A stretch of 64,000 nucleotides of DNA. Source: Acidimicrobiia bacterium. Lineage in GTDB: Bacteria; Actinomycetota; Acidimicrobiia; IMCC26256; PALSA-610. Positions 26,272 to 63,419 of the stretch are shown here, piece after piece (position 1 is the first letter of the stretch; each line of letters starts with the position of its first letter). The translations under genes and the position numbers were made by a program. The notes under the pieces are model-generated. The model did no database searches and was not told the origin of the DNA. It was given only the letters and a program-made list of their open reading frames with translations. The stretch covers positions 4,456 through 68,455 of the forward strand of contig JBBSFB010000002.1 of NCBI GenBank assembly GCA_038239145.1, written 5' to 3'.

Positions 26272-26636
26272 AGACGCGCATCCCGATCAAGTATTCGAAG
26301 GTGTGGTCGTGGCTGCTCACGAGCATGCTCCTGCCCCGGAACCTCGCCTACGTCGAGATCGACGGCGACACGATTCGCGTGCGCATGGCGTGGGCGTTCC
26401 GGGTCAAGTTCACGCGGGGCGACATCAGCACGGTCGACAAACACCGCCCGGTGGTGAGCATCGGCGTCCACGGATGGCGAGGCCGCTGGCTGATCAATGG
26501 CGCGAACCGCCCGATCGCCAGCGTGACGCTCGCCCTGCCCGCCCGCGCCCGCGTCGTCGGGTTTCCCGTGCATCTGCGTGAGCTACTGGTCAGCGTCGAC
26601 GACGTTGCCGAGCTGCGCCGCGCGCTCCTAACCTGA
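26268..26636 (+). CDS. Hypothetical protein (PH-like small actinobacterial family)
   Basis: ATGA coupling to the NUDIX gene. VRMAWAF, IGVHGWRGRWLING, LLVSVDD. Confidence 0.7.
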   Translation: MKTRIPIKYSKVWSWLLTSMLLPRNLAYVEIDGDTIRVRMAWAFRVKFTRGDISTVDKHRPVVSIGVHGWRGRWLINGANRPIASVTLALPARARVVGFPVHLRELLVSVDDVAELRRALLT

Positions 26637-26648
26637 CGCCCGCGTCAG
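26633..26648. promoter_or_regulatory. Palindromic operator CTGACG-N4-CGTCAG (site 1)
   Basis: Perfect; overlaps a TAACCT -10 box upstream of the SDR gene. Confidence 0.75.
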
Positions 26649-26692
26649 TTCTTTCGCATCAATCACACCACACTGGTCACCAGGGAGTTCTC

Positions 26693-27613
26693 GTGGGTCT
26701 GTACGACGGCAAGGTCGCGATCGTCACCGGCGCAGGGCGCGGCATCGGCCGCAGCCATGCGTTGCTCCTCGCGTCGGAAGGCGCAGCAGTCGTCGTGAAC
26801 GACCTCGGCGGTTCGAGTGGCGGCGAAGGCGCCGACGCGACCCCCGCGCAGCAGGTGGTCGACGAAATCGAAGCCAAGGGCGGCCGGGCGATCGCCAACT
26901 ACGACAGCGTCTCGTCGTGGAGCGGAGCCGAGGCGATGATCCAACAGGCCGTCGACACGTACGGCGCCCTCGACGTGCTCATCAACAACGCCGGGATCCT
27001 GCGCGACAAGATGAGCTTCAACATGGACGAGTCCGAGTGGGACCAGGTCATCGACGTCCACCTCAAGGGCCACTTCGCGACGTCACGGTTCGCCGCGTCG
27101 TACTGGCGCCTGAAGTCGAAGGAGACCGGCGCGCCGGTCAACGGCAAGATCGTGAACACCGCGTCGGAGTCGGGGCTCTACGGCAACGCGGGCCAGGCGA
27201 ACTACGCGGCGGCCAAGGCCGGTATCGCGTCGATGACGATCGTGATGGCACGTGAGCTCGAGCGCATCGGGGTACGCGTGAATGCGATCTGCCCGGTTGC
27301 GCGCACACGCCTCACCGAAACGGTCGCCGGCGACTTCATGAACGCCAAGGAAGGCGAGTTCGACCGATTCGCACCGGAGAACATCTCTGCGGTCGTGTGC
27401 TGGCTCGCTTCGGATCTCTCCGTTGGCGTGACCGGTCAGGTCGTGAAGGTGATGGGTGGTCAGGTGCAGCTCGTACGGGGTTGGCGTCCGATCACCGAGG
27501 CGACCGACGACAAGCCGTGGACGATCGAGTCCATCAACGACGTCGCGTCGACCCTGTTCGCCAAATCGGACAAGGGTGCCCCGCCGTTCATGCCGAACGT
27601 GGGCGACAACTAA
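26693..27613 (+). CDS. SDR oxidoreductase (3-hydroxyacyl-CoA dehydrogenase/MFE-2-like)
   Basis: TGAGRGIG, VVVNDLGG, NNAGILRD, YAAAK. Confidence 0.92.
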   Translation: MGLYDGKVAIVTGAGRGIGRSHALLLASEGAAVVVNDLGGSSGGEGADATPAQQVVDEIEAKGGRAIANYDSVSSWSGAEAMIQQAVDTYGALDVLINNAGILRDKMSFNMDESEWDQVIDVHLKGHFATSRFAASYWRLKSKETGAPVNGKIVNTASESGLYGNAGQANYAAAKAGIASMTIVMARELERIGVRVNAICPVARTRLTETVAGDFMNAKEGEFDRFAPENISAVVCWLASDLSVGVTGQVVKVMGGQVQLVRGWRPITEATDDKPWTIESINDVASTLFAKSDKGAPPFMPNVGDN

Positions 27614-27639
27614 ACCGGGCGGTCGTAGGCTCGGTGCCG

Positions 27640-28947
27640 ATGAGCATCGAGACTCCCGACACCGAATCGCCGACAACTGCGGTCCCGACGACTGATCTGG
27701 GCGTCGACGACATTCACCTCGGCGACATCGAGCAGTGGATGCGACCCGATCGCGAAGGGATCTTCGCCAAGCTCCGCGCCGAACGACCCGTGTCGTTCCA
27801 CGCGGAGCCGGTGCCGCCGCCCGAGATCGGCATCCCGCAGGGTCCGGGCTTCTGGGCGCTCACGCGTTACGCCGACGTCGTGCAGGTGTCGCGCGACCCG
27901 GAGACATTCCATTCCGCCCCGACGTCGACCGTCGGCGACATGCCCGAAGGCATCGCGGAGTGGCTCGGATCGATGATCAACATGGACGCGCCCAAGCACA
28001 CGAAGATGCGACTCATCGTCAACCGCGGGTTCACGCCCCGCCAGGTCGCGCGCATCGATGACTCCGTGCGCGAGCAGGCGAAGGACATTGTCGATCGCAT
28101 CGCGCCGCTCGGCGAGTGCGACTTCGTCAGCGAGATCGCGGCGGCGCTTCCCCTCCAGATCATCTGCGACATGATGGGCATCCCGCGCGAGGACACGCAG
28201 CAGATCTTCGAGCACACGAACGTGATCCTCGGCGTCGGCGACCCCGAGTACGTGCAGACGATGGAACAGCTCATGGCCGCGGGCATGGGCCTTTTTCAAT
28301 ACGGGCTCGCACTCGCCCAGGACCGGCTGGACAATCCACGCGACGACATCACCACCGCGCTCATGCAGGCCGAGGTCGAAGACGAGGACGGGAAGCACCG
28401 GCTCACCACCGGCGAGCTCGGGTCGTTCTTCCTACTCCTCGTCGTGGCCGGCAACGAGACGACGCGCAATGCGATCAGTCACGGCATGCGCGCGTTGACC
28501 CAGCATCCGGACCAACGCAAGATCTGGACCTCCGACTTCGAGACGGTGTCCCCGACCGCGGTCGAGGAGATCGTGCGGTGGGCCACACCCGTCATCAACT
28601 TCCGGCGCACCGCGAGCCGCGATGTCGTGGTGGGAGACGTCGAGGTCGAGGCCGGCCAGAAGGTCGTGATGTTCTACAACTCCGCGAACCGCGACGAGCG
28701 CGCCTTCGACGACCCGTTCCGTTTCGACGTGCAGCGGACACCCAACGAGCACTTCGGTTTCGGGGCGGGCGGTCCGCACTTCTGCCTGGGCGCGAACCTC
28801 GCCCGCCGGGAGATCCGGGTGATGTTCGAAGAGGTGCTCCGGCGCCTCCCCGACATCGAGGTGACCGGTGAACCCGACATGCTGCAGAGCAACTTCATCC
28901 ACGGCATCAAGCGCATGCCCTGCGCCTGGCACACCGTCAACGACTGA
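27640..28947 (+). CDS. Cytochrome P450 (CYP124/CYP125-like)
   Basis: AGNETT I-helix, EEIVR, FGAGGPHFCLG heme motif. Confidence 0.92.
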   Translation: MSIETPDTESPTTAVPTTDLGVDDIHLGDIEQWMRPDREGIFAKLRAERPVSFHAEPVPPPEIGIPQGPGFWALTRYADVVQVSRDPETFHSAPTSTVGDMPEGIAEWLGSMINMDAPKHTKMRLIVNRGFTPRQVARIDDSVREQAKDIVDRIAPLGECDFVSEIAAALPLQIICDMMGIPREDTQQIFEHTNVILGVGDPEYVQTMEQLMAAGMGLFQYGLALAQDRLDNPRDDITTALMQAEVEDEDGKHRLTTGELGSFFLLLVVAGNETTRNAISHGMRALTQHPDQRKIWTSDFETVSPTAVEEIVRWATPVINFRRTASRDVVVGDVEVEAGQKVVMFYNSANRDERAFDDPFRFDVQRTPNEHFGFGAGGPHFCLGANLARREIRVMFEEVLRRLPDIEVTGEPDMLQSNFIHGIKRMPCAWHTVND

Positions 28948-28967
28948 GCGCCGTCGCTGCAGCACGT

Positions 28968-29011
28968 CCAGAAAATCGGTGGTGCCGCCGGTGGTACCAC
29001 TCCGATTCTGG
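28968..29011. repeat. Degenerate member of the REP-like palindrome family (copy D); possible terminator
   Basis: CCAGAAAATCG-GTGGTGCCGCC/GGTGGTACCAC-TCCGATTCTGG hairpin just after the P450 stop. Confidence 0.55.
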
Positions 29012-29222: not shown

Positions 29223-29240
29223 CCTGACGCGTACGTCAGG
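29223..29240. promoter_or_regulatory. Palindromic operator CCTGACG-N4-CGTCAGG (site 2)
   Basis: Perfect 7-bp arms, just after a TACCTT -10 box, upstream of the ACAD pair. Confidence 0.8.
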
Positions 29241-29279
29241 TACGACTGGCGTCAGGTTCCGTAGTCGGAGGGAGTCCAG

Positions 29280-30455
29280 GTGCAGCTTGCGTGGAGCGCC
29301 GAAGACGAGGAGTTTCGCGCCGAGCTGATCGCCTTCCTCGACAACAACACGCCCGAGGAGATGATCGGCGGCTACGACTTCCAAGACGTCGGTGACGAAG
29401 CGGAGCTCGTACCGCAGTGGATGCGCGACTGGCAGGCCACCCTGTTCGACCACGGCTGGATGATCCCGGGCTACCCGCCCGCGCTCGGCGGCCGGAACTG
29501 CACACCCGTGCAGACCCTCATCTATCTGGAGACGCTCGCCAGCCGTCGCCTCCTGCGCAGCTCACACTTCCCCGGCTACGCGATCGTCGCACCGAGCCTG
29601 CTCGAGTACGGCAACGACGAGCAGAGGAAGCTCGTACCCGCCGCGATCCGGGGCGACACCATCTGGTGCATCGGGATGAGCGAGCCGAACGCGGGCTCCG
29701 ACCTCGCGGGCCTGCAGACCCGGGCCGAGGTCCACGACGACCACTTCGTCGTTAACGGGCAGAAGGTCTGGACCAGCTACGCGATGATCGCCCAGAAATG
29801 CTTCTGTTATGTGCGGACGGATCCGACGCTGCCGAAGCACAAGGGCATCTCGCTGCTCATCATCGACATCGACTCCCCCGGCATCGACATCCGCCCGCTG
29901 CGCCACATCAACGGCACCGCCGGTTTCGCCGAGGTCTTCTTCACCGACGTGATCGTGCCGCGCGAGAACCTCGTCGGAGGCTTGAACGGTGGCTGGGCGA
30001 TCACGCAAGGATCGCTCGCGCACGAGCGCGCCGGACTCTGGGTCGAAGGCGTCGCGCGTTTCGAACAGACCATCGACGGGCTGGTCGCCCTGGCGCGCCA
30101 ACAGGGACAGGCGGGCGACCCGATCATCCGGCGCAAGATCGCGGCCGCCTACGAGCTCGCGGCATCGCTGCGCGCGCTCGGCTACAAGGGATTCGCGTCG
30201 TTCGCACAAGGATCGAGCGCACCCGAGCACAGCTACATGAAGATGGCGATGTCGGAAGCGAGCAAGGCCGCGTTCGAGTTGGGCATGGAGATATCGGGGC
30301 CGCTCGCACCCGTCACCGACCCTGAACTCGGTGAGACGACGAACCGCTTCGTACACGGGTTCTTCATGTCGTTCGCGAACACGATCGCGGGCGGCAGCTC
30401 CGAGATCCAGCGCAACATCATCGCCCAGCGCGTGCTGGGCCTTCCGAGGCACTGA
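29280..30455 (+). CDS. Acyl-CoA dehydrogenase (large partner of a likely heteromeric pair)
   Basis: MSEPNAGSDL, NGQKVWTS, FAEVFFTDV, IAGGSSEIQRNII. Confidence 0.92.
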   Translation: MQLAWSAEDEEFRAELIAFLDNNTPEEMIGGYDFQDVGDEAELVPQWMRDWQATLFDHGWMIPGYPPALGGRNCTPVQTLIYLETLASRRLLRSSHFPGYAIVAPSLLEYGNDEQRKLVPAAIRGDTIWCIGMSEPNAGSDLAGLQTRAEVHDDHFVVNGQKVWTSYAMIAQKCFCYVRTDPTLPKHKGISLLIIDIDSPGIDIRPLRHINGTAGFAEVFFTDVIVPRENLVGGLNGGWAITQGSLAHERAGLWVEGVARFEQTIDGLVALARQQGQAGDPIIRRKIAAAYELAASLRALGYKGFASFAQGSSAPEHSYMKMAMSEASKAAFELGMEISGPLAPVTDPELGETTNRFVHGFFMSFANTIAGGSSEIQRNIIAQRVLGLPRH

Positions 30456-30466
30456 GGATCAGGTCC

Positions 30467-31399
30467 GTGGACTTCTCGCTCACCCCCGATCAGGAACTGT
30501 TGCGCGACACCGGGCACAAGCTGCTCGACCGCGAATGCCCGGCCGCGCTCGTGCGCGCGCACATCGAAGACCCGTCGGTGTACGAGCCGCTGTGGCGTCA
30601 CCTCTGCGAGTACACCGCGCTCGGTGCCGGCGATGCGACCGACCTGTGCCTGTTTCTCGAAGAGACCGGCTACGTCGCCGCGCCCGGCCCGTTCCTCGCA
30701 ACCGCCACCTACCTTGCGCTCACCGGCGACGAAACCAACACCGGCACCGTGTGCCTCGTCGACGATCCGATCCTGCCGTTCGTCCTCGAAGCCGATCGCG
30801 TCGACCGGATCGCAGTGGTATTCCCCGGGGCTCGGATCGCGGTGGTCGACGCGACCGACCTTCCCGCGCGCTTCGTCTCGACCGTTGACTTCTCTCGGCG
30901 ACTGTTCACCCTCGACGTGCCGGAACTCGCGACCGAACCGCTCGACGCGGAGTTGTACGCGCGCTGGCGCGACCGCGCCTTCGCGAGCGTCGCGGCGGAG
31001 ATGGTCGGCACCGCCCGTCGCATCTTCGACATGTCGTTGGAATACGCCAAGGAGCGCAAACAGTTCGACGTTCCCATCGGTTCGTTCCAGGCCATCCAAC
31101 ACAAGCTTGCCGACATGTCGCTCGCGCTCGAGCGCGCGACGGCGGCGGTGCACTACGCCGCGATGACCATCGACGGCGGCGACCCCGAGCGCGGCCGCGC
31201 TTGTCACGTCGCCAAGGCGGCCGCGGGCGAAGCGGCGCGCCGGATCCTGAAGGACGGAATCCAGATCCACGGCGGCATCGGCTACACGTGGGAACACGAT
31301 CTCCACATGTACCTTCGTCGCTCCACCGCCGACGAGTCGCTCTTCGGAACCACCGGCTGGCACCTCGATCGGCTCGCCGACCTCCTCATCGACGCCTGA
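30467..31399 (+). CDS. Acyl-CoA dehydrogenase (short partner)
   Basis: RKQFDVPIGSFQAIQH, QIHGGIGYTWEHD. Short N-terminus typical of alpha2beta2 ACAD partners. Confidence 0.9.
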   Translation: MDFSLTPDQELLRDTGHKLLDRECPAALVRAHIEDPSVYEPLWRHLCEYTALGAGDATDLCLFLEETGYVAAPGPFLATATYLALTGDETNTGTVCLVDDPILPFVLEADRVDRIAVVFPGARIAVVDATDLPARFVSTVDFSRRLFTLDVPELATEPLDAELYARWRDRAFASVAAEMVGTARRIFDMSLEYAKERKQFDVPIGSFQAIQHKLADMSLALERATAAVHYAAMTIDGGDPERGRACHVAKAAAGEAARRILKDGIQIHGGIGYTWEHDLHMYLRRSTADESLFGTTGWHLDRLADLLIDA

Positions 31400-31461: not shown

Positions 31462-31477
31462 CTGACGTCTGCGTCAG
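31462..31477. promoter_or_regulatory. Palindromic operator CTGACG-N4-CGTCAG (site 3)
   Basis: Perfect; 4 nt after a TAGACT -10 box (31452-31457), upstream of hydantoinase B. Confidence 0.8.
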
Positions 31478-31496: not shown

Positions 31497-33344
31497 ATGA
31501 CCAATGTCGACCTGGTTCGTCTCGCGGGGAGCCGGGGCCGGATCTCGGATTCGCCCACCGTCGACCTGGTGACCGCGGAGGTCATCCGGGGCGGCATGGA
31601 GACGGTCTGCTTCGAGATGGCGGAGTACGTCTCCCGCACCGCCACGACTCCGATCCTCAACCAGTCGAACGAGCGCAACGCGACCGTGCTCGACGCCCGG
31701 GGGCGGCTCGCAGCGCTGTCCGTCGGCATCCCGCAGTTCATGCTCACCTCCACCCTGCCCGTGCGCTTTGCGCTCGAGTTCCTGGGCGTCGAGGAGTTCC
31801 GCGAAGGCGACGTCTTCGTCGCCAACGACCCGTACCACGGCGGTGGTCACCTTCCCGACTACAACGTGTTCGCGCCCGTGTACGCGAACGATCCTGCCGC
31901 GCCGGGCGGGCGGCGCATGGTGCTGATCGCGAGCATCCAGTGCCACCACGGCGACACCGGCGGCGGTGTCCCGGGCGGTTACAACATCACCGCGACCGAC
32001 ATCTGGGGCGAAGGCGTCCGCTGGCCGGTCGTGAAGGTGCTCGACCGCGGCATCGAACGCCGCGACGTGCTGTACGCGCTGCAGGCGAACAACCGCATCC
32101 CGAGCTACATCGGCGACCTGCGCGCACAGATCGGTTCCGCGCAGCTGGGCGCGCAACGGTTGGGCGACCTGATCGACCGCTACGGCGTCAGCGCGATCGA
32201 AGACTCCGTCGACTACATGATCGACTACGCGGCCCGCCGCTTCCGCGAAGAGGTCGCGCAGTGGCCCGACGGCGAGTACGAGGCCGACTCCTATGTCGAC
32301 CACGACCCGCTCGGTAATCCCGACATCCACCTGCACGTGAAGGTGAGCGTGGCCGGCGACGAGCTGACCATCGACTTCACCGGCACCGACACCCGGCCCG
32401 AGCTGCAGTCGTGGTCGACGTTCGGCAACACCCGCGGGTACACCGTCGGCCAAATCGCGGCCATGATGGATCCCGAGATCCCCAAGAACGAAGGCTTCTT
32501 CGAGCAGATCAAGCTCGTGGTGCCGAAGGGCTGCCTCCTCAACCCGGAAGCGGGCAAGCCCGTCTCCGCCGGCACGCACCACCCGGGCGCTGACGTGGGC
32601 GAGGTCATCGCCAAGGCGATGCAGTACGTGCTCCCCGACCGGGCCGTGCCCCAGACCTACAAGACCGGCATCCCGACGATCATCGTCGGCGTCGATCCCC
32701 ACACGGGCGCGAGCTTCACCGACCACTCGGCCGAGGTGTACTCGGGCTGGTGCAACGCGTCGAAGGGCATGGACGCCTGGGGCGCGCTCAACGCGAGCTT
32801 CGGCAACCTCTGGAAGGCGACGGCCGAGATCAACGAGTCGCTGTATCCGCACGTGCAGTGGAGCCGCGACTACCGCACCGACGGCGGCGGGCCCGGGCAG
32901 TGGCGAGGCATCTGTGGCTCGCACTACGAGAAGGAAGTACGCGTCGACGCCAAGGTGTACACGTACGTGGTCGGGATGAAGTATCCGATGCCCGGTATCT
33001 GCGGAGGGCGCGATGGCTCCCCGAACGAGATGATCCTGCGTTACGGCAGCGACGACGAGTTCAAGGTGAAGCACACCGCGGAATGGGTGCCGATCCACGC
33101 GGGCGAACGGATCATGTTCGACTACGGAGGCGGCGGCGGTTGGGGTGATCCTCTCGAACGCGATCCCGAAGCGGTACTCGACGACGTGATCGACGAGTAC
33201 GTGTCCGTCCTGGGTGCGAGTCGCGACTACGGAGTCGTGCTCGACGGTTCGCTCGAAGACCTCACCCTCGAGATCGACCACGTCGGCACGCGTGCACTGC
33301 GCGAGCGGATGCGGGCCGAGCGGACGCCGGCCGAGCGCGCTTGA
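31497..33344 (+). CDS. Hydantoinase B / oxoprolinase family subunit
   Basis: NDPYHGGGHLPD, HHGDTGG, DFTGT, GGGGWGDPLERDP. Confidence 0.9.
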   Translation: MTNVDLVRLAGSRGRISDSPTVDLVTAEVIRGGMETVCFEMAEYVSRTATTPILNQSNERNATVLDARGRLAALSVGIPQFMLTSTLPVRFALEFLGVEEFREGDVFVANDPYHGGGHLPDYNVFAPVYANDPAAPGGRRMVLIASIQCHHGDTGGGVPGGYNITATDIWGEGVRWPVVKVLDRGIERRDVLYALQANNRIPSYIGDLRAQIGSAQLGAQRLGDLIDRYGVSAIEDSVDYMIDYAARRFREEVAQWPDGEYEADSYVDHDPLGNPDIHLHVKVSVAGDELTIDFTGTDTRPELQSWSTFGNTRGYTVGQIAAMMDPEIPKNEGFFEQIKLVVPKGCLLNPEAGKPVSAGTHHPGADVGEVIAKAMQYVLPDRAVPQTYKTGIPTIIVGVDPHTGASFTDHSAEVYSGWCNASKGMDAWGALNASFGNLWKATAEINESLYPHVQWSRDYRTDGGGPGQWRGICGSHYEKEVRVDAKVYTYVVGMKYPMPGICGGRDGSPNEMILRYGSDDEFKVKHTAEWVPIHAGERIMFDYGGGGGWGDPLERDPEAVLDDVIDEYVSVLGASRDYGVVLDGSLEDLTLEIDHVGTRALRERMRAERTPAERA

Positions 33345-33345
33345 C

Positions 33346-35406
33346 ATGGGCTTCCGAGTAGGAGTGGACGTCGGCGGCACGTTCACCGACCTCATCTGTG
33401 TGACGCCCGCGGGCGAGATCGTGCTCGACAAGACCCCGACCACCCTCGATGACCAGTCGTCGGGCGTGATGAACGGGCTCGGCCAACTCGCCCAGCGATT
33501 CGGAATCGAGCTCGACGCGTTCTGCAAGGACCTCGACATCCTCGTGCACGGCACCACCACTGCCGACAACACGATGATCGAGATGAACGGCGCGCCCACC
33601 GGCCTGCTCGTGACCGAGGGTCACCGCGACGAAATCGAGCTCCGGCGGTGCCATAAAGAGGAGATCTGGGACCCGAACTATCCGGGCCCGATCCCGATCG
33701 CGCGTCGGCGCGCCCGCATCCCGATTCCGGAACGCATGGACTTCGAAGGCAATGTGCTCCTCGACCTCGACGAAGAAGCCGTTCGCCGGGGCGTGCAACG
33801 GTTAAAGAAGCTCGGCGTGCGTTCGATCGCCGTCATGTATCTCTTCTCGTTCGTCAACCCGGTGCACGAACGGCGTACGCGCGAGATCGTGTTGGAAGAG
33901 TTTCCCGACGTCGAGCACATCTCGCTGTCGCACGAGGTCATGCCGCGCGGTCCGGAGTTCGAACGCGTCTCGACCACCTTGGTGAACGCGTACGTCGCGC
34001 CCCGCATCGCGAACTACACCCAGAACCTGCAGGACAAGCTGCGCCGGGCCGGATACCTCGGGCCGCTGCTCATCATGCAGTCGACCGGCGGGGTCATGCC
34101 CCCCGAGTACGTGTCGCGCCGCGCGGTCACGTTGCTCGCGAGCGGACCGACCGGCGGAGTCATGGGCGCAACGGTCGCCGCGCAGGCCGCCGGCATCGGC
34201 GACTTCGTCGCGGTCGACATGGGTGGCACCAGCTTCGACATCTGTCTCGTGCGCCACGGGCGACCCGAGATCAAGACCGACTGGAACTGGCGGTACCGCT
34301 ACTACATCGGACTCCCGATGGTCGACGTTCAGAGCGTGGGCGCGGGCGGCGGTTCTATCGCTCGCGTCCGCCAAGGTGCGCTGCTCGTCGGTCCCGAGTC
34401 GGCCGGTTCGACTCCGGGCCCGGCCTGTTACGGACGCGGCGGAACCCGCCCAAGCGTCACCGACGCCGACGCCGTGCTCGGATACCTGCCCGTCGACGGG
34501 TTCGCGGGCGGTCGCATGCACCTCGACATCGCCGCGGCCCGGGCCGCGATCACTCACCACGTCGCGGAACCGCTCGGGATCGAGCTCACCGAGGCCGCCT
34601 GGGGCATCGAGCGCATCGTGAACGCGAATATGGCGAACGCCACCCGCAAGGTGCTCGCCGGTCACGGGGCTGATCCGCGCGACCTTGCGCTGATCGCGTT
34701 CGGCGGCAACGGCGCCGTGCACGCGGCCGCAATCGCGCGCGAGCTCGGCGTCGATCGCATCGTCGTACCGAAAGCCGCGCCCGCGTTCAGCGCGCTCGGC
34801 GTGTTGGTGGCCGACTACGTCGTCGATCTCGTGCGCTCGTATGTCACGCCCCTGTCACAGGTCGACCTCCGTCGCGTCCGCGATCTTCTCACCGACCTCA
34901 TACAGGAGGTCGACAAGGAGCTCGACCCGACGGGCGTTGTTCCCGCCGACGTCGAAACGAACCTGTACGCGCAGATGTGTTACCCGGGCCAGAACTTCGA
35001 CATGAGCGTTCCCGTGCCCGAAGGTGTGGCGCTCGACGAGCCGGGACTGCTCGACCTCGCCGAACGCTTCCACGACCTGCACGAGACCGAGCGCGGCTTC
35101 AGCTTCCGTTCTCAGCAACCGCTGATGCGGGGCGTGCGCGTCATCGCGCGCGGCAACACGCTCAAACCCGATCATCTCGCGGAGACAGGTGCGCTCGCCG
35201 ACGCCGACGAGGCCCGGCGCGGTATTCGCCACGCGTACTGGGGTGACGGCTTCGTCGACACGCCCGTGTACGACGGCAGCCGCCTCGGAGAAGGCGCGAG
35301 TGTCGAAGGCCCCGCGCTCATCGAAGAGCCGTTCACAGTGGTGGCTCTCCCGCCGGGCGCGGCCGCCACCCTCGACGGCCTCGGCAACTACATCATCTCC
35401 GTGTGA
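33346..35406 (+). CDS. Hydantoinase A / oxoprolinase family ATP-binding subunit
   Basis: GVDVGGTFTD, HGTT, SGPTGG, DMGGTS, GAGGGS, GPESAG. Confidence 0.92.
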   Translation: MGFRVGVDVGGTFTDLICVTPAGEIVLDKTPTTLDDQSSGVMNGLGQLAQRFGIELDAFCKDLDILVHGTTTADNTMIEMNGAPTGLLVTEGHRDEIELRRCHKEEIWDPNYPGPIPIARRRARIPIPERMDFEGNVLLDLDEEAVRRGVQRLKKLGVRSIAVMYLFSFVNPVHERRTREIVLEEFPDVEHISLSHEVMPRGPEFERVSTTLVNAYVAPRIANYTQNLQDKLRRAGYLGPLLIMQSTGGVMPPEYVSRRAVTLLASGPTGGVMGATVAAQAAGIGDFVAVDMGGTSFDICLVRHGRPEIKTDWNWRYRYYIGLPMVDVQSVGAGGGSIARVRQGALLVGPESAGSTPGPACYGRGGTRPSVTDADAVLGYLPVDGFAGGRMHLDIAAARAAITHHVAEPLGIELTEAAWGIERIVNANMANATRKVLAGHGADPRDLALIAFGGNGAVHAAAIARELGVDRIVVPKAAPAFSALGVLVADYVVDLVRSYVTPLSQVDLRRVRDLLTDLIQEVDKELDPTGVVPADVETNLYAQMCYPGQNFDMSVPVPEGVALDEPGLLDLAERFHDLHETERGFSFRSQQPLMRGVRVIARGNTLKPDHLAETGALADADEARRGIRHAYWGDGFVDTPVYDGSRLGEGASVEGPALIEEPFTVVALPPGAAATLDGLGNYIISV

Positions 35407-39899: not shown

Positions 39900-39905
39900 C
39901 GGGTG

Positions 39906-51914: not shown

Positions 51915-51917
51915 CGG

Positions 51918-53573
51918 CTACAGATCCCAGAAAGGTTCGCGCTGGTAGCGCACGAACGACTCGTGCAACGCACGTTCGTCATCGTCAGTGAACAGTGGGT
52001 AGGCGTCGTCGCCGCGCAGTCGGACGAAGAGCTCGCCGCCGCCGACGAGATCGTGGCGGAACTTCTGCTGTACGAGCGTGCGTTTCACGACCTTGTTCGT
52101 TACGGTCGTCGGCGGGTCGTGCATCAGCCGAACGTAGCGGGGCCGCCACTTCGGGCCGATCGACTCCCGCGCGTCGAGCCCGCGCGCGAACTCGACCGGG
52201 TCGAACGACGCGTGCTCGGCGATCACGAGCCCCGCCATCACCTGATCGCCGGCCTGGTCGTCGGGCACGCCGTACAGGGCCGAGAGCACGATTCCGGGCG
52301 CCTTGCGCAGGGTGTCCTCGATCGGCCCGGCCGGGAAGTTGTCCCCGCCGACGCGGATCCAATCCGCGGTGCGCCCGGCGAAATAGAGGAAGCCGTGCTC
52401 GTCCTTGTAGCCGAGGTCGCCCGACCAGTACCAGCCGTTCCGCGTCGCTTTCTCGGTCGCGACCGAGTTGTTGTAGTAGTCCTCGAACGGCCCGACGCCC
52501 TGCGTGTTGACGATCTCGCGCACGCACTCCTCCGCGTTCTGCACGCCGCACCGTACGCGTCGATGACCTCGATGCGGTAGCGCTCGGAGAAGTTCGCGAC
52601 CACTTCCGGCGACCCTTCGTTGCCGAACGCGATGCGCAGTGAGTTCTGCGCATCGTCGGGGAGCTGCGGCTGCGCGAGCAGATACGCGAGCGGCTTTCCG
52701 GTGTAGTTGAAGTACGTGGTGCCGTACCGGCGCACGTCGGGGAGCCAACGCGACGTCGAGAACCGGCGGCCGAGGCCGACCGCGCACCGAGTGACGAGCG
52801 ACGGCGCCCACCCCACCTGCACCGCGTTCGAGTGGAAGAGCGGCATACAGACGAACCCGATGTCGTCGGCCTCGAAGCCCATGATCTTCACCACGCGATT
52901 GCCGGTCACCAGAAGCCGACGTTGCGAACAGGTGACCGCCTTGGGCGCGTCGGAGGTTCCCGAGGTGCAGATGAGCGCCCAGATCGAGTCGACGTCGGGC
53001 TCGATCCCCTGCGTCGACCGCGCCGTCGTGCACCCCGAGCACGTCGCTCAACGCCGAACCGAGCGAGGTCGCCGGAACATCGTCGTCGTCGTCGAAGCGA
53101 TCGGACATCAACACCGGCGGCAGGTCGTCGGCGACGGGCTCGAGCAACGCCGCGTGCCGGGGCTCGGTGATTGCCAAACCGCAGTGCGAGTGCTGTACGT
53201 CGCGCAGCAAATGCACGCCGCGGCGGGTGTGGTTCCGGCCGACGACGGCCGCGCCGATGAGCGCGGCGCCGCCGAACGCAAACAAGTAGTCGGGTGTGTT
53301 GTCGACCAACATCGCGACGTGGCGGGGACCGTCGGCCGGCAACTGCGCATCGAAGAGCGCCGCGAACCGCACCGACTCCGCGGAGTACTCCGCGTGCGTC
53401 CATTGGGCGTCGCCGAACTTGATCGCGACCCGGTCGCCCGACTCCTGCGCGTTGCGCCGGAGCAGCGCCGCCGCGTTCGCGGCGACGAGGGGAGCCTGGC
53501 CCGGGGCCGTCTCCGGCGCCGACCTCGGCTCCCGGCTCGGGCTCGGGCTCGGGCGCGGTATGGAAACTGACAT
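51918..53573 (-). pseudogene. Disrupted acyl-CoA synthetase (FadD1/FadD17-like)
   Basis: Extra G in the run at 53006-53009 shifts the frame before TSGTS..PKA. Out-of-frame deletion near 52547 joins DAYGA to VQNAEE. Several conserved motifs are mutated. Confidence 0.8.
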
Positions 53574-53582
53574 CGGCGTCAG
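53567..53582. promoter_or_regulatory. Operator CTGACA-N4-CGTCAG (site 4)
   Basis: One mismatch. Directly after minus-strand -10 TAGTCT and just upstream of plus-strand -10 TAAGCT, between divergent operons. Confidence 0.7.
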
Positions 53583-53606
53583 AGACTACGCGTAAGCTCC
53601 CCGCCG

Positions 53607-54458
53607 ATGAGCGTTGACCTGACGGGCGCAGCCGACCTGCATTGCCACTTCGGGCCCGACCCCCACCGCGAGCGATCCGTCGACGCGTTCGAGGCCGCGG
53701 GCGAGGCGGGCGCCGCCGGGCATCGGGCCGTGGTGCTGAAGTCGCACGACTCCCCTACCGCGTCGCTCGCCTGGGCCGTGCAACGGGAGGTCGGCGACAC
53801 GATCTCGGTGTTCGGGGGCATCTCCTGCGATCGCGAGGTGGGAGGCGTGAATCCCGCCGCGGTGGAGGTCGCGCTCGGCCTCGGCGCCCGCATCGTGTGG
53901 CTGCCGACCCTCAGCAGCCGCCAGGACTTCGACAACGGCATTGCCGCCCAGCTGGGCATTCCCGGTCCCGGTCTCGTCGTCACCGACGCCAACGACCAGC
54001 TCCTCCCGGAGACGCGCGAGATCCTGGCGCTGGTGAAAGACCACGACGCGATCCTGGCGACGGGCCACGTCAGCGCGGCCGAGCACTACGCGGTCGTGCA
54101 CGAGTTCGCGCGTACCGGCCGGGTGATCGTCACCCACGCGACCGAAGACCTCGCGGGCCCGAACCTCAGCGCCGCCCAATGCCGCGAGCTGGCCGATCTC
54201 GGGGCCTGGATCGAGCTCTGCGCGATGACGTGTATCGGTGGGCTCGCCACCCGTACCGTCGGCGAGATGGTGACGACGATCGGTGCCGTCGGCGTGGAGC
54301 GCGTGACCTTGGGAACCGACTTCGGCCAGAAGATCAACCCCCATCCGGCGGCCGGATTGCAGACCTACGCTGATGCCCTGTACGCAGAAGGCATGACCGA
54401 GGCCGAGATCAGGCAGATGGCGTGCGCCAACCCCTGCGAGCTGTTGGGAGTCGAGTAG
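53607..54458 (+). CDS. DUF6282 family amidohydrolase-like TIM-barrel protein
   Basis: DLHCHFGPD, LKSH, GGVNP.AV, VWLPT, ATGH, VTH, GTDFGQ, ANP..L. Confidence 0.8.
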   Translation: MSVDLTGAADLHCHFGPDPHRERSVDAFEAAGEAGAAGHRAVVLKSHDSPTASLAWAVQREVGDTISVFGGISCDREVGGVNPAAVEVALGLGARIVWLPTLSSRQDFDNGIAAQLGIPGPGLVVTDANDQLLPETREILALVKDHDAILATGHVSAAEHYAVVHEFARTGRVIVTHATEDLAGPNLSAAQCRELADLGAWIELCAMTCIGGLATRTVGEMVTTIGAVGVERVTLGTDFGQKINPHPAAGLQTYADALYAEGMTEAEIRQMACANPCELLGVE

Positions 54459-54943
54459 TGCCGCACATCACCGTTCCCGAAGGAAAGGCCGATCCCGAGG
54501 TACGGGTCTGGGCCCTGCGCCCCGACATGGGCATCGGCGCAGGCGCGCTGAGTCACGCGATCTACGACCAGAGCATCGTCCCCGTGCGCGAGCGTGAGCT
54601 CGCGCGTATGCGCATCGCCCAGATCAACGGATGCGTGATCTGTCAGCAGTGGCGCGCGACGCCCGGAGCCGAAGGCGCGGTCACCGAGAACGACTACGCG
54701 CATGTGCTCGAGTGGCGGACCCACGATGGTTACTCGGCTCGCGAACGGCTCGCAGTCGACTACGCGGAAAAGTTCGCGCTCGACCATCACAGCATCGACG
54801 CCACGTTCTACGACGAGATGCGCGCCGCCACGTTCACCGACGCCGAGATCCTCGATCTGACCGTGTGCATCGGCGGCTGGCTCGCGCTCGGGCGCACGCT
54901 CCACGTGCTCGGTCTCGACGACGCCTGCAAGATCACCCACTAG
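54458..54943 (+). CDS. Carboxymuconolactone decarboxylase/AhpD-like protein
   Basis: RELARMRIAQINGCVIC CxxC motif, ERLAVDYAE. Confidence 0.85.
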   Translation: MPHITVPEGKADPEVRVWALRPDMGIGAGALSHAIYDQSIVPVRERELARMRIAQINGCVICQQWRATPGAEGAVTENDYAHVLEWRTHDGYSARERLAVDYAEKFALDHHSIDATFYDEMRAATFTDAEILDLTVCIGGWLALGRTLHVLGLDDACKITH

Positions 54944-54947
54944 CCCG

Positions 54948-55781
54948 ATGGGCGACCTCGCCGCCGATACCGCCGTTCACGGAAGTGTCGGCCGTTACTC
55001 CGCCCGGTTGTCGCGCGACTGGGAGATCTGGGGACCGAATGGCGGGTACATCGCCGCGATCGCGCTGCGGGCCGCGGGCCGGCACTCGCAGTTCGGTCGG
55101 CCGGTCAGCATCTCCGGTCATTTCGTCGGTGTCGCCACGTTCGACGACGTGATCATCACCGTCACGACGGTACGGCTGTCCGAGCGGGCCGAGTCGATGC
55201 GGGTCTCGATGAAGCAGGGCTCGCACGCGATCTTCGAGGCACTCGTGTGGACGTGCGCGCCGATGGAGGGCCTCGAACACGAATTGGCGCTCAGCCCCGC
55301 CGACTACGAACCCGAATCGGTTCCGTCGACCGCGCAGCGCATGGCGCAGGCGGGGATCGATTCCGTCTACCGGTTCTGGGCGAACCTCGACGAACGTTCG
55401 AACGACTGGATCTCGGGCGAGGCGTGGCTCGACCGCACGCCCGAGTACCCGTCGTTCGAACGCTGGTACCGGTTCCTGCCGACCTCGACGTTCGACGACC
55501 TCTGGGTCGACGCGTGCCGCTCGCTCATCCTCATCGACACGCTCGGATGGCCTGCGGTCTGTCGGCTCCACATCGACGACGCCTACATCGCGCCGAGCAT
55601 CGACATCACATGCACGTTCCACCGCGCCCGCATCCAAGAGCCCTGGTTGTACGCACAGGCGACGTCGGTGAGCGCAAACGCCGGCATCGTCGGCTGCGAA
55701 GGCAAGGTCTGGGCGCGCGACGGCGCGCTGCTTGCGATGGGTACCAGCCAACTCCTGTGCCGGCCGATCCCGGCCTCCTGA
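54948..55781 (+). CDS. Acyl-CoA thioesterase (TesB-like double hot-dog)
   Basis: WEIWGPNGGY, APSIDI..FH, VWARDGALLA..SQ. Confidence 0.85.
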   Translation: MGDLAADTAVHGSVGRYSARLSRDWEIWGPNGGYIAAIALRAAGRHSQFGRPVSISGHFVGVATFDDVIITVTTVRLSERAESMRVSMKQGSHAIFEALVWTCAPMEGLEHELALSPADYEPESVPSTAQRMAQAGIDSVYRFWANLDERSNDWISGEAWLDRTPEYPSFERWYRFLPTSTFDDLWVDACRSLILIDTLGWPAVCRLHIDDAYIAPSIDITCTFHRARIQEPWLYAQATSVSANAGIVGCEGKVWARDGALLAMGTSQLLCRPIPAS

Positions 55782-55790
55782 GAAAGACCG

Positions 55791-56453
55791 ATGGAAGACC
55801 GCATCACGCCCGGACTCTACCTGGAGATGACCGATCTCCCGATCGCCGACTACGTACGCGACCGCGTTCCCGTCGTGCTCCGGCGCGCAGGTGCGCAACG
55901 GGCGACGTGGTGGCGCAACGTGAAGCGCGGGCGTACAGACCTGCCTGCCGTGCTCCCCGAGTTCGGCCATCTGGCCGTGTACGAGGTCGACGTCACCTTC
56001 GCGGCGCCCGAGCCGGTCGACGAGATCAGGAGCCACCATTTCCGCCACTACCGCCGCCCGGGCCAAGGCATCGTGAGCGGCCGCCCGACACTCGGGCTCT
56101 CCTTGGTGCTCATCTCACCGAAGGACGAGTCCCGAGCCCAGGAGCTGCGGGACTGGGGCGACTTCGTCCACATCCGTCACATCGCCGAAGCGGCCGTTCC
56201 CGGGTACTGCATGATCACGCCGTATGAGAACGTCAGCGGCGGAGATCCCCGGTTCATGCACTTCTACGAGATGGACACCGACGATCCCGAAACCGCGTTC
56301 AAGTCGATGACCCCACTCGTCGCGCAGCGCATCGGCGCCGACACCACCGATGCGTTCCGCCACTGGGCGCGTGGCCCCAGCCTGCGAATCATGTACGTGA
56401 ACTCGTTCGCACGGGTCGGAACCAGCGACACGAACGGCCCGAGCGGCGCATGA
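55791..56453 (+). CDS. Hypothetical protein, tandem EthD/DUF4286-like alpha-beta barrel
   Basis: Two units ending LAVYEVD and FMHFYEMD. DW.D.VHI..I..VPG motif. Confidence 0.6.
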   Translation: MEDRITPGLYLEMTDLPIADYVRDRVPVVLRRAGAQRATWWRNVKRGRTDLPAVLPEFGHLAVYEVDVTFAAPEPVDEIRSHHFRHYRRPGQGIVSGRPTLGLSLVLISPKDESRAQELRDWGDFVHIRHIAEAAVPGYCMITPYENVSGGDPRFMHFYEMDTDDPETAFKSMTPLVAQRIGADTTDAFRHWARGPSLRIMYVNSFARVGTSDTNGPSGA

Positions 56454-57052
56454 CGGAAAGCGACTACTTCGACGTGGTGGCACGCCAACGCGCCCATCGA
56501 TCCTTTTCGGCCGAGCCCGTCGACGACGAGACCATCGGTCGCATCCTCGCGGCGGCGACGTTCGCGCCGAGCGCGGAGAACAAACAGCCGTGGGAGTTCC
56601 TCGTCGTGCGCGACGAGTCGACCCGGGCTGCCATCGGCGACCTGTCCCGCCGGGCGTGGGAAGCACGCGGCCGCTCATTCTCGGAGACCCGGCTCACCCC
56701 GAAGATGCTGGCCGACGTCGACCGAGGTGCGACCGGTGGCGTCGCCGAGGCGCCCGTCAACATCGTCGTGTGCGCCGACGTGCAACGCGGTCTCGAGGCG
56801 ACGATCCCGTCGTCGATCTTCCCGGCCGTGCAGAACCTCTTGCTCGCGGCCACTGCGCTCGGCCTCGGCAGCGCGCTGACGACGATCACGTCGGGGTTCC
56901 GTGCCGAAATGCAGGAGATCCTCGGTCTCCCCGACCACGTGTGGCCGATCGCGCTCGTGCCGATCGGCCATCCGGTCAAGCCCCTCGGACCGCCGCGCCG
57001 AACCCCCTACACCGAACGCACACACCGCGACCGGTACGGGCGGAGCTGGTAG
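56450..57052 (+). CDS. Nitroreductase family protein
   Basis: RAHRSF, APSAENKQPW, AVQNLLLAATALGLG, IGHP. Confidence 0.9.
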   Translation: MTESDYFDVVARQRAHRSFSAEPVDDETIGRILAAATFAPSAENKQPWEFLVVRDESTRAAIGDLSRRAWEARGRSFSETRLTPKMLADVDRGATGGVAEAPVNIVVCADVQRGLEATIPSSIFPAVQNLLLAATALGLGSALTTITSGFRAEMQEILGLPDHVWPIALVPIGHPVKPLGPPRRTPYTERTHRDRYGRSW

Positions 57053-60726: not shown

Positions 60727-61362
60727 CTACGCGCTGCGCACGCGGGCGGCAAGATCGCAGGCCCACTGCACGGGATCGTCGAGGCCCCAACCGATGTCGG
60801 GAAGGTCGAAGTACTCGATGCTCAGCTTGCCGCGATAGTCGAGTCGCTCGAGCTCACGGAACACTGCATCGAAGTCGACCGCGCCGGTGGGGTCGTCGAC
60901 GTGGACCTGGGTGTGACCGGGCTTGCCCTGTCGCAACTGCACGTGATCGGCCAGCGCGAGGAGCTCACACGGATCACCGCCCCAGTCGGCGACGTGACCC
61001 GTGTCGACCAGGATGCGGACGTCACCGACCTCGTCCCGGAACGCCCGGATCGATTCGGCCGAGTTCACGATCGCGCCTGCCCACGGCTCCAACAACGCCT
61101 GCGGCGCGCGCCGCCACCACCGCACCGCCCGGTCCCACGCGCCGTCGAGCTGTGCGCTCGGAGCGGGCGTCGTGCACCACGCGTCGACCGGCTTCGGGTA
61201 CGCGGTCGGGCACCCGATCGGCAAGGCGAGACTGTCGGGATCGGTGCCGATCATGCAGTCGATGTGCTCGAAGCCGTCGGCCTTGGCGGCGGCGGCGCGG
61301 TCGGCGATCCCGGCGTGCCGGGCGTAGGTGACGTCGACGACACCCAACGGCCAGTCCGTCAC
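60727..61362 (-). CDS. Sugar-phosphate isomerase/epimerase-like TIM-barrel protein
   Basis: LLEP, VDTGH, HVQLR, G.VDF..Y.G.LSIEY metal ligands. GTGA overlap with the SDR gene. Confidence 0.75.
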   Translation of the reverse strand: MTDWPLGVVDVTYARHAGIADRAAAAKADGFEHIDCMIGTDPDSLALPIGCPTAYPKPVDAWCTTPAPSAQLDGAWDRAVRWWRRAPQALLEPWAGAIVNSAESIRAFRDEVGDVRILVDTGHVADWGGDPCELLALADHVQLRQGKPGHTQVHVDDPTGAVDFDAVFRELERLDYRGKLSIEYFDLPDIGWGLDDPVQWACDLAARVRSA

Positions 61363-62249
61363 TTCTCCATCGACTTCGGCATCACCATGCCCACCGTCTG
61401 CATGTGCTGGCCGAGCGTGGCGTCGAACTTCTCTGCGACCTCGCTCGCGCTCCAGCCGCCGTCCTTCCACATCCACGCAATCTGCTTCGGGTGCTGGAAG
61501 AGTGTGTACGCGTACTCGGTCCGGCCGAGGATCTGACCGTTCACGTGGGCGGCGCCTTCGGACGCCAAGAACGCGACGAGCGGCGCGTTGAGGGCCGGAT
61601 TCTCCTCGGGCGGCGCTTCCTTGCCCGAGCGCTCGTACAGCGCGGCCGTCATCCGGGTCGCGCCCGCGGGCGCGACCGCGTTGACCGTGACGCCGTAACG
61701 GCCGAGCTCCATCGACCACACGAAGGTCATGCCCATGATGCCGGCCTTGGCCGCGCCGTAGTTGGTCTGGCCGAAGTTGCCGCGCAGACCCGCCGACGAC
61801 GTGATGTTGATGATCCGGCCGTAGCCCTTCTCCTTCATCACCTCGGCCGCGTGGCGCGTGCAGTTGAAGGTGCCCTTCATGTGCACGCCGACGACCGAGT
61901 CGAAGTCGGCTTCGTCCATCTTCAGCAACGTCTTGTCGCGCACTATTCCCGCGTTGTTGACGAGGATGTCGACAGTACCGAAAGCCTCGACCGCCGTGCG
62001 CGTGATGTTGGCGGCGCCGTCGAAGTCGGTGACGGAGTCGTAGTTCGGGACGGCTTTCGATCCGAGCGCCCCGATCTCGGCGCACACCTGTGCAGCCGGA
62101 TCCTCCTCGGTGCCGCGTCCGTCGAGGGAAACTCCGACGTCGTTCACGACGACCGACGCGCCCTCGCGCGCGAAGCACAGCGCGAACTCGCGACCGATAC
62201 CGCGACCGGAGCCGGTCACGATCGCGACGCGACCGTCGAGCACACCCAT
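61359..62249 (-). CDS. SDR oxidoreductase (MFE-2-like)
   Basis: TGSGRGIG, NNAGIVRD, YGAAK. Confidence 0.92.
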   Translation of the reverse strand: MGVLDGRVAIVTGSGRGIGREFALCFAREGASVVVNDVGVSLDGRGTEEDPAAQVCAEIGALGSKAVPNYDSVTDFDGAANITRTAVEAFGTVDILVNNAGIVRDKTLLKMDEADFDSVVGVHMKGTFNCTRHAAEVMKEKGYGRIINITSSAGLRGNFGQTNYGAAKAGIMGMTFVWSMELGRYGVTVNAVAPAGATRMTAALYERSGKEAPPEENPALNAPLVAFLASEGAAHVNGQILGRTEYAYTLFQHPKQIAWMWKDGGWSASEVAEKFDATLGQHMQTVGMVMPKSMEK

Positions 62250-62666
62250 CTACGCGACCGCCGCGGTGGCCTCGCCGATGACCGCGGTCACGCCGTCCTG
62301 GTTCGCCACCGTGAACGTGAGGTCGACGAGGTGCTCGCCGCCTTCGTCGCGCTTGCCCGTGACGGTCGCCAAACAGGTGAGCACGTCGCCCGGCCACACC
62401 TGCTTGGCAAAGCGCACCTGCAGCCGGCGGAGCGCCTCGGCGCCGAACCAGTCCTTCACAACCCGGGCTGCGAGTCCCATCGAGAGCATCCCGTGTCCGA
62501 ACACCGACGGGTTGCCGACCTGGGTCGCGATCGTGTCGTCGTGATGCATGGGGTTGAAATCGCCACTGGCTCCGGCGTACTTCACGAACATCGTGCGCGT
62601 GAGCGCAGGGAATTCCTGGGTCCGTTCCTCGCCAACCGAAACGGCGTCGTACGTGGTCGCGCTCAC
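62250..62666 (-). CDS. MaoC-like (R)-enoyl-CoA hydratase
   Basis: YAGASGDFNPMHHD..FGHGM hydratase-2 motif. GGAGG RBS. Confidence 0.9.
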   Translation of the reverse strand: MSATTYDAVSVGEERTQEFPALTRTMFVKYAGASGDFNPMHHDDTIATQVGNPSVFGHGMLSMGLAARVVKDWFGAEALRRLQVRFAKQVWPGDVLTCLATVTGKRDEGGEHLVDLTFTVANQDGVTAVIGEATAAVA

Positions 62667-62681
62667 TTGTCCCCTCCGATG

Positions 62682-62697
62682 CTGACGTCGGCGTCGG
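62682..62697. promoter_or_regulatory. Operator CTGACG-N4-CGTCGG (site 5)
   Basis: One mismatch; directly after minus-strand -10 TACGCT, upstream of the MaoC gene. Confidence 0.7.
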
Positions 62698-62744
62698 AGC
62701 GTAGCGGTGCAAGCCCGCTCCAGTCAGGGCGAGACACCGGAAAC

Positions 62745-62774
62745 ATGACACGAACGTCGGGTCCGACCTAGCCT
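62745..62774 (+). promoter_or_regulatory. TetR gene promoter with degenerate operator (site 6) over the -35
   Basis: ATGACA-CGAA-CGTCGG (62745-62760). ATGACA-N18-TAGCCT-N6-GTG leaderless layout. Confidence 0.55.
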
Positions 62775-62780
62775 TCCCAG

Positions 62781-63419
62781 GTGCCCCGGGCCGGTGGAAA
62801 CCAATCCGCGGCGCGCGGGCGGGCGACGAGTGAGCCCCGAGAGCTGCGCGCCCGAGGCCGCAACACGCAACGACGCCTCCTCGATGCCGGCGCCATCGTC
62901 CTGGCGACGAAGGGGTATCACGCCACCCGGGTCGACGACGTGGTGAAACTGGCCGAGACCTCGCACGGAACCTTCTACCTGTACTTCTCCAACAAGGAGG
63001 AGCTGTTCCGTGCCCTCGCAGCCGAGGTCGCCGAGGAGATGCAAGCGCTCGCCGAAGCCCTGGAACCGCTCCGGGCCGGAGCCACGGGGCAAGCACGACT
63101 GCAACGCTGGATCGCGGAGTTCGTCGCCCTCTACCGGCGGCACGGTCCGGTCATCCGAGCGTGGACCGAAGCCGAGATCGGCGGCAGTGAGTTCGGCCGC
63201 CTGGGCACCGATCTGCTCACGCAGTTCACCGGCGTGATCGTCGGCCGGGTCGGCGAGGTCGCCCCCGCCGACGTCGATCCCGCAATCGCCACACTCGTGC
63301 TCGTTGCGATGCTCGAGCGCCTGAACTACTACGCGCTCACGGAGCAAGTGCACGTCGAGCCCGACGTGATCGCGGCGACGCTGGCGCGGGTCACCCACGC
63401 GTCGCTGTTCGGCGGTTGA
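62781..63419 (+). CDS. TetR/AcrR family transcriptional regulator
   Basis: LLDAG..GYHATRVDDVV..SHGTFYLYFSNKEELF HTH. Confidence 0.92.
   Translation: MPRAGGNQSAARGRATSEPRELRARGRNTQRRLLDAGAIVLATKGYHATRVDDVVKLAETSHGTFYLYFSNKEELFRALAAEVAEEMQALAEALEPLRAGATGQARLQRWIAEFVALYRRHGPVIRAWTEAEIGGSEFGRLGTDLLTQFTGVIVGRVGEVAPADVDPAIATLVLVAMLERLNYYALTEQVHVEPDVIAATLARVTHASLFGG

Follow-up and report, generated by a model that had tools for sequence, protein, structure and literature searches.

In the genome of an uncultured soil bacterium of the class Acidimicrobiia, short palindromes of the form CTGACR-N4-YGTCAG lie at the promoters of many catabolic genes, and we propose, at a probability of about 0.75, that they are the operators of a one-domain TetR-family regulator that would control its own gene together with a genome-wide catabolic regulon. 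The regulator is encoded at 62781..63419 of the 64,000-nucleotide stretch of DNA analysed here (hereafter the window), which corresponds to contig positions C2:4456-68455 of an assembly of 4.66 Mb, 67.7% G+C and 137 contigs (G000). Comparison of genomes shows the motif, its position at promoters, its conservation and its link to one clade of TetR proteins. An earlier sequence-only reading of the window had proposed the stricter pattern CTGACG-N4-CGTCAG as the operator of this TetR.

Palindromic sites at promoters

Scanning the window for the strict pattern reproduced the three perfect copies (at 26633, 29224 and 31462) and the two copies with one mismatch (at 53567 and 62682) from which that reading had started, with counts far above expectation: three perfect copies compare with 0.03 expected, and five copies with at most one mismatch with 0.66 expected, and neither count was reached in any of 100 dinucleotide-preserving shuffles (at least three in 0/100 and at least five in 0/100, respectively). 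With up to two mismatches allowed, the number of copies in the window is at chance level (9 versus 9.94 expected), and the four copies gained in this way are intragenic according to our own gene calls. The −10-like hexamers that the sequence-only reading had named at 0–4 nt from, or overlapping, these five sites are all found on reading the sequence. Operator 4 (at 53567) is adjoined on the minus strand by TAGTCT (53583-53588) and has beside it TAAGCT (53593-53598), with the ATG of the DUF6282 gene 8 nt further. Operator 2 (at 29224) is accompanied by an additional half-site, CGTCAG, at 29250-29255, 10 nt downstream, which makes three half-sites within 32 nt.

The site at 62682 (O1) and a sixth, degenerate copy at 62745 (O2) sit between the TetR gene on the plus strand and the operon on the minus strand that encodes a MaoC hydratase, a short-chain dehydrogenase/reductase (SDR) and a TIM-barrel protein; the distance between the two sites is 63 bp. 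O2 had been placed over the −35 region of the TetR gene; it is indeed present there and is kept in relatives. Its end is followed by 8 nt, the hexamer TAGCCT (62769-62774), a further 6 nt and the GTG start codon at 62781, a layout that is probably that of a leaderless promoter with O2 over its −35 region.

In the whole genome the strict pattern has ten perfect copies, nine of them in non-coding DNA. In many of the good sites the sixth base of each half is A/T, and the consensus is therefore written CTGACR-N4-YGTCAG, with TGACR-N4-YGTCA as its core, C or T preferred as the first spacer base, and A-rich flanks. This consensus has 22 exact copies in the genome, versus one for the reversed control pattern. 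The genome-wide scan that the sequence-only reading had put forward as a check gave 71 sites with at most one mismatch to the consensus, 48 of them in non-coding DNA (17% of the genome) and these mostly 0–90 nt upstream of start codons, coding and non-coding DNA being separated by our own gene caller, based on G+C content at third codon positions (GC3). The contig ends C57:1-200 and C68:21500-21930 carry an identical sequence with two sites spaced 61 bp from each other; a single locus thus enters the raw counts twice, and the number of non-coding operators is 46 rather than 48. These approximately 46 operators are spread over at least 25 contigs, and for 39 distinct sites a start codon is no more than 200 nt away.

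The sites also keep defined distances to −10-like hexamers. Across 53 oriented site–gene pairs, TANNNT hexamers start at −10 to −4 relative to the site in 13 (seven of them exactly at −4), inside the site at +7 in four, and at +15 to +27 in ten, the last class often with a start codon 6–8 nt past the hexamer; the remaining positions scanned, about 73, account for only five. As judged from these distances, the −10 to −4 class places the operator over the presumed start point and the +15 to +27 class over the −35 region, and the operator positions are consistent with repression by occlusion.

The proposed reader of the sites

The genome contains 44 genes with a PF00440 match, and the TetR of the window is the only one to have a non-coding site close by, less than 1 kb away (at 195 nt); the second-shortest distance is 772 nt. 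Of 41 genomes of the order, 35 encode an ortholog of this TetR, counting G000. Phylogenetic footprinting of the orthologs, which the sequence-only reading had also suggested, revealed a neighbouring site, with no more than one mismatch, for 28 of the 30 genes whose loci were fetched (own locus included), mostly within a conserved divergent TetR/MaoC–SDR intergenic region and across genera. In relatives O1 is kept in this intergenic region, and in same-genus orthologs O2 reads CTGACACGAACGTCGG or similar; in the named set described below, distant loci that fail the 16-mer carry the variant GTGACACGCGTGTCGG or TGACACGGGTGTCAA at the equivalent place, 8–10 nt before TAGCCT and an ATG. With sites conserved beside its orthologs, the autoregulation claimed for the TetR at 62781 is probable. 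We further collected 80 publicly named ortholog loci, nearly all titled as metagenome-assembled genomes (MAGs) of Acidimicrobiia, Actinomycetota or Actinomycetes: the 16-mer is found within −300 to +900 of the gene in 50 of them and the 14-bp core within 250 nt upstream of the gene in 71, whereas the remainder of the same loci holds 15 sites in 319 kb.

The presence of the TetR also tracks motif enrichment across genomes, and it is the best candidate reader. TetR-bearing genomes of the order contain 8–30 exact motif copies, versus 0–3 for the control pattern. Five genomes from five families (G023, G032, G033, G035 and G036) have no TetR homolog at E ≤ 1e-20 and contain 0, 0, 0, 1 and 0 copies, respectively; the exception is G017, a 69% complete genome without the TetR and with 17 copies. 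In 150 other Actinomycetota genomes, ten of which belong to the class but not to the order, we counted 0–5 copies each, and a TetR homolog at E ≤ 1e-25 occurs in only six of them, all from one family and with 39–45% identity. Motif and regulator thus do not match any regulon of the well studied actinobacteria in this sample. The order-wide, ortholog and operator 4 counts include the unpublished genome G015, and the phylum counts the unpublished genomes G041, G058, G108, G160 and G186; no statement rests on any of these alone.

The content of the predicted regulon can be followed into other families. G034, G029 and G038 have 37 exact sites between them, and we retrieved 34 stretches that together cover 35 of these, each with 4 kb of surrounding sequence (the TetR-proximal sites of G034 and G029 were left out, two G038 sites share one stretch and three sites are intragenic) and compared the 36 flanking genes by BLASTP with our own G000 proteome, in which 49 of 4332 genes flank a site. 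The best match was such a site-flanking gene for 20 of the 36 (11/15 in G034, 9/14 in G029 and 0/7 in G038, hence 20/29 for G034 and G029 together), and one was among the top three matches for 25. The conserved members include three divergent pairs (CoA-transferase/Amidohydro_2, SDR/hotdog and cupin/ureidoglycolate-lyase-like), an AMP-binding enzyme and a thiolase. As regards the genes of the window, the G034 ortholog of hydantoinase B (83% identity) has a site 15 nt upstream, and both the G034 ortholog (69% identity) and the G029 best match of the first SDR have an upstream site. Operator 4 and its two −10 boxes lie in a 36-bp block that is kept unchanged in all 20 same-genus loci (own locus included) while its flanks vary, and in other genera the site is kept in one of six loci; this footprint used 26 of 29 loci, with L235 (contig end), L241 (partial match) and L243 (second half of a split gene) dropped. 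In G021, G024, G026, G029 and G034 one contig holds both the DUF6282 and the TetR gene, at a distance of 8–12 kb.

Several observations weigh against this assignment. No site with at most one mismatch lies beside the ortholog at loci L026 and L030, the ortholog of G028 has none within 2 kb even at two mismatches, and 30 of the 80 MAG loci lack the full 16-mer and have the weaker core only. Since related genomes are not independent, the co-occurrence counts are descriptive and overstate the support. The content of the regulon drifts, as the differing targets of G038 (0/7) indicate. Our GC3-based caller mis-split at least one gene (fadD), and the similarity of the TetR to FadR in structure is weak (18% identity, TM-score 0.63–0.70) and leaves the ligand unnamed. 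Finally, a paralogous TetR of the same genome (G000:C4:113750-114367) is 43% identical to the window protein, shares its recognition helix, TSHGTFYLYF, and could act at these sites as well.

We may wonder whether it is this paralog that reads the sites, alone or together with the TetR of the window, the latter then being local to the MaoC–SDR operon. The recognition-helix stretch common to both proteins fits this idea, as does the location of the paralog within a 35-kb stretch of contig C4 with four sites, and the five motif-poor genomes lack both proteins, so that co-occurrence cannot separate them. Yet all 20 paralog loci are free of sites at one mismatch or fewer within approximately 500 nt, the conserved sites on the regulator's own promoter belong to the ortholog and not to the paralog, and G028, in which best match and synteny identify an ortholog-type gene only, has nine motif copies versus one for the control. 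These comparisons of loci favour the window-type protein as the reader, and we consider reading by the paralog, alone or jointly, rather improbable. The paralog loci (C4:113733-113830 and at least 13 of the same genus, L155-L167) have a conserved block of their own, ggccgaagcgtacaagtcg, directly past the start of the divergent gene; this upstream block contains no TGACR-N4-YGTCA site. A broader role for the TetR clade is an equally tentative idea: it might be the master switch of carboxylic-acid and lipid catabolism throughout the order, with 10–30 promoters per genome, including those of Liv-type binding proteins and of an unusual importer in which a major facilitator superfamily (MFS) protein is fused to an ATP-binding cassette (ABC) ATPase, and it might be paired with the paralog of identical recognition helix, such that one operator set integrates two acyl-CoA signals.

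Predicted regulon and mechanism

Target classes were assigned by Pfam on the genes flanking the sites. The predicted targets include at least eight acyl-CoA dehydrogenases, four SDRs and four MaoC/hotdog hydratases; an OB_ChsH2_C protein, a thiolase, two AMP-binding enzymes and an ADP-forming acyl-CoA synthetase; two family-III CoA-transferases, five Amidohydro_2 proteins and one Amidohydro_3 protein; two cytochromes P450 and a ferredoxin-reductase-type flavoprotein; a Zn-dependent alcohol dehydrogenase, a 2-hydroxyacid dehydrogenase, an O-methyltransferase and a cupin; and, for transport, two Peripla_BP_6 binding proteins, an ABC exporter-type protein and the MFS–ABC-ATPase fusion. The predicted regulon is thus one of broad CoA-dependent catabolism and uptake rather than of a single pathway, and we take its enzyme mix to resemble the β-oxidation of side chains or branched lipids and of aromatic acids. 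The fusion protein has 739 residues (C50:2855-5074, minus strand) and an exact operator at C50:5136, 61 nt upstream of its gene, which is divergent from the O-methyltransferase gene. We also considered steroid ring degradation as the theme of the regulon and rejected it: genes with a KshA_C domain (3-ketosteroid 9-alpha-hydroxylase type) occur at C78:3-1121 (122 bits) and C96:11756-11935 (49 bits), and these two contigs have no site at one mismatch or fewer and only three two-mismatch matches, none of which adjoins the KshA_C genes.

The sequence-only reading had seen in the six sites of the window one uncharacterised CoA-dependent pathway under local control. Its operator-like promoter sites stand, and five site-bearing transcription units do lie within 37 kb, with the neighbourhood from the DUF6282 gene to the TetR gene kept across families. 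The confinement to one pathway does not stand: the approximately 46 non-coding sites are on at least 25 contigs, the targets belong to many enzyme classes and at least three uptake systems, and unrelated genes separate the units of the window itself. The region 37993-50000 holds an ABC-2 exporter, a MarR regulator, a GMC oxidoreductase, a peroxiredoxin, a HAD hydrolase and a glutamine synthetase III, and the 'catabolic region' is therefore not one cluster. A regulon limited to a local pathway is in our view very unlikely.

For the genome-wide regulon we infer binding, the sign of regulation and the effector as follows. A TetR dimer on the palindrome would lie either over the −10 box and start point or over the −35 region of its target promoters, which in many cases look leaderless, thereby blocking RNA polymerase. 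It would repress its own gene via O2 and the divergent MaoC–SDR operon via O1, and in the genome as a whole about 40 transcription units for the CoA-dependent breakdown of carboxylic acids or lipids and for their uptake. Release would most likely be brought about by an acyl-CoA intermediate, an effector suggested by the content of the regulon and by the known TetR regulators of β-oxidation. That the TetR is instead an activator, or a dual regulator at some promoters, seems as unlikely as a local pathway regulon: the sites of the +15 to +27 class do take a −35 position upstream of the −10 box, a place that activators can occupy, and FasR is a TetR-type activator, whereas many others abut the −10 box or overlap with it and so extend over the start point (13/53 at −10 to −4 and four with the hexamer inside the site), where binding blocks RNA polymerase, and most TetR-family proteins are repressors. 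A structural repeat (a hairpin, a terminator or an element like the repetitive extragenic palindromes) is barely credible, for although a perfect inverted repeat could fold into a 6-bp stem closed by a 4-nt loop, the spacer sequence is freely variable, the sites lie upstream of start codons near −10 boxes and not past stops with T-runs, and the enrichment follows one TetR clade.

Related systems, neighbouring genes and significance

The 212-residue protein encoded at 62781..63419 has the helix-turn-helix (HTH) domain of the family, with a PF00440 match of 56.2 bits (cut-off 24) over residues 33–79, and its AlphaFold2 model has the standard TetR fold, which in the family is all-helical, with two domains and about nine helices; in the model eight helices follow a disordered N-terminus (predicted local distance difference test score 83.4). 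Foldseek aligned the model with at least 265 PDB chains at E ≤ 0.001, and all of the 50 listed are TetR-type regulators. Regulators of this family bind as dimers to a palindrome near their own gene and are released by a ligand; a conserved palindrome does lie on the promoter of the window TetR, for which dimerisation, binding and ligand release are predicted. The nearest solved chains are those of FadR (3whb, and 3whc with stearoyl-CoA), followed by EthR, FasR and similar proteins, at 18–22% identity. No NCBIfam equivalog cut-off is reached by the protein, and the best 120 of 3275 sequence homologs have generic names only.

FadR (YsiA) of Bacillus subtilis, a repressor of β-oxidation genes that is released by long-chain acyl-CoA, is the best match among solved structures both in sequence (E 3.6e-9) and in fold (Foldseek E 4.2e-6, TM-score 0.63/0.70). 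It differs in operator sequence and in taxon, and identity to the window TetR is only 18%; with 43.7 bits versus a cut-off of 200 on the Bacillus-type FadR model (NF053878), the window protein is not a member of that family. The likeness to KstR (Rv3574) of Mycobacterium and Rhodococcus is one of organisation: both are one-domain TetR proteins, KstR an autoregulated repressor acting through a short palindrome at many promoters of CoA-dependent catabolism of the lipid/steroid type. KstR targets comprise acyl-CoA dehydrogenases, MaoC/ChsH-type hydratases, an Hsd4A-type SDR, thiolases and cytochromes P450, and its regulon has tens of operators and is conserved over a wide range of taxa; the window TetR clade, unlike KstR, is limited to a single order of Acidimicrobiia among the genomes sampled. 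The KstR operator, quoted in the sequence-only reading as TnnAACnnGTTnnA, differs from the palindrome of the window, whose distinctness from the KstR and KstR2 boxes is upheld. We also rejected KstR itself as the equivalent, given 29.6 bits versus a cut-off of 280 on its model (NF033703), the different operator and the KstR-like boxes present elsewhere in the genome. The window TetR would work like KstR or the TetR-type FadR while being a member of neither family, and the proposed mechanism is conventional: a familiar gene switch in a little-studied group.

The genome also encodes a second system, which is KstR-like: two of its TetRs reach 141 and 119 bits against the KstR model (cut-off 280) and are adjoined by boxes of the TAGAACnnGTTCTA type (TAGAAC..GTTCTA), which also occur at four further non-coding places (Table 1). 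Mce3R (Rv1963c) of M. tuberculosis is likewise a TetR-type repressor of lipid-metabolism genes, with weak similarity in the HTH (9b7y, E 6.4e-7); we rejected it as an equivalent, the window protein having one HTH in 212 residues and a symmetric operator, versus a double TetR and an asymmetric site. In PMC11667970, Mce3R is described as a 406-residue double TetR with a 25-bp non-palindromic site. Searches of the full-text literature, supplements aside, gave no match to the motif written as CTGACGNNNNCGTCAG or TGACGNNNNCGTCA. Queries combining the half-sites with TetR terms found no description of the operator, the letters occurring only in primers in PMC6921075, and queries for TetR operators of Acidimicrobiia returned unrelated matches only. 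Passages of PMC3388012 deal with KstR and a TAC..GTA motif, and not with the palindrome of the window.

Table 1. Positions of the operators, the flanking transcription units and the KstR-like system (window coordinates unless a contig is named)
Feature	Position	Strand	Basis and remarks
Operator 1	26633..26648		CTGACGCCCGCGTCAG; TAACCT 26629-26634 overlaps by 2 nt; SDR start 44 nt downstream
SDR (PRK07791-type, 306 aa), then cytochrome P450 (437 aa)	26693..28947	+	Pfam, NCBIfam; downstream of operator 1
Operator 2	29224..29239		CTGACGCGTACGTCAG; begins 2 nt past TACCTT
Two acyl-CoA dehydrogenase genes (391 and 310 aa)	29280..31399	+	Pfam; downstream of operator 2
Operator 3	31462..31477		CTGACGTCTGCGTCAG; begins 4 nt past TAGACT; ATG 19 nt downstream
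Hydantoinase B, hydantoinase A, GH38-like gene (overlapping stop/start)	31497..37889	+	Pfam; downstream of operator 3
fadD-like AMP-binding gene (frame disturbed mid-gene) and acyl-CoA dehydrogenase	50754..53573	-	Pfam, frame analysis; operator 4 side
Operator 4	53567..53582		CTGACATCGGCGTCAG; common to divergent promoters
DUF6282, CMD-family protein, acyl-CoA thioesterase, unknown protein, nitroreductase	53607..57052	+	Pfam; operator 4 side
MaoC hydratase (138 aa), SDR (294 aa), xylose-isomerase-like TIM-barrel protein	60727..62666	-	Pfam; O1 side
Operator O1	62682..62697		CTGACGTCGGCGTCGG; TACGCT (- strand) abuts; MaoC GTG at 15 nt
Operator O2 (sixth, weak copy)	62745..62760		ATGACACGAACGTCGG; spans -35 region of TetR promoter
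TetR-family regulator (212 aa, P0001), proposed operator reader	62781..63419	+	PF00440; structure model; comparative evidence
KstR-like system	C22:40832-41532, C74:13364-13964, C78:16823/16887, C70:11889, C19:46021, C36:18192

Some of the neighbouring genes call for comment. An operon at 22502-26636, which encodes a ChsH2-OB/zinc-ribbon protein, an SCP-x-type thiolase, an enoyl-CoA hydratase, a NUDIX protein and an unknown protein, terminates within operator 1, its TGA stop forming part of the CTGACG half-site; no operator was seen upstream of this operon. The GH38-like gene (alpha-mannosidase family, 35403-37889) overlaps the stop of the hydantoinase A gene by 4 nt and is apparently co-transcribed with the hydantoinase/oxoprolinase pair, an odd combination. 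In the fadD-like open reading frame (51918..53573) the GC3 coding signal switches to the +1 frame for approximately 180 codons (window 52500-53040, minus strand); this out-of-frame stretch carries the AMP-binding signature, and the 551-residue translation has Pfam matches at both ends only. Such a pattern would be expected either from two compensating assembly indels or from a pseudogene.

Soils are rich in Acidimicrobiia, nearly all of them uncultured, and to our knowledge none of the regulators of these bacteria has been characterised so far. An operator together with its assigned regulator would provide a map of the co-controlled catabolic and uptake genes in the order, and this map takes in genes of unclear role: DUF6282, the hydantoinase–GH38 unit, the Amidohydro_2 paralogs and the MFS–ABC fusion importer. 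Through effector screening, the purified TetR would moreover offer an in vitro handle on the substrates.

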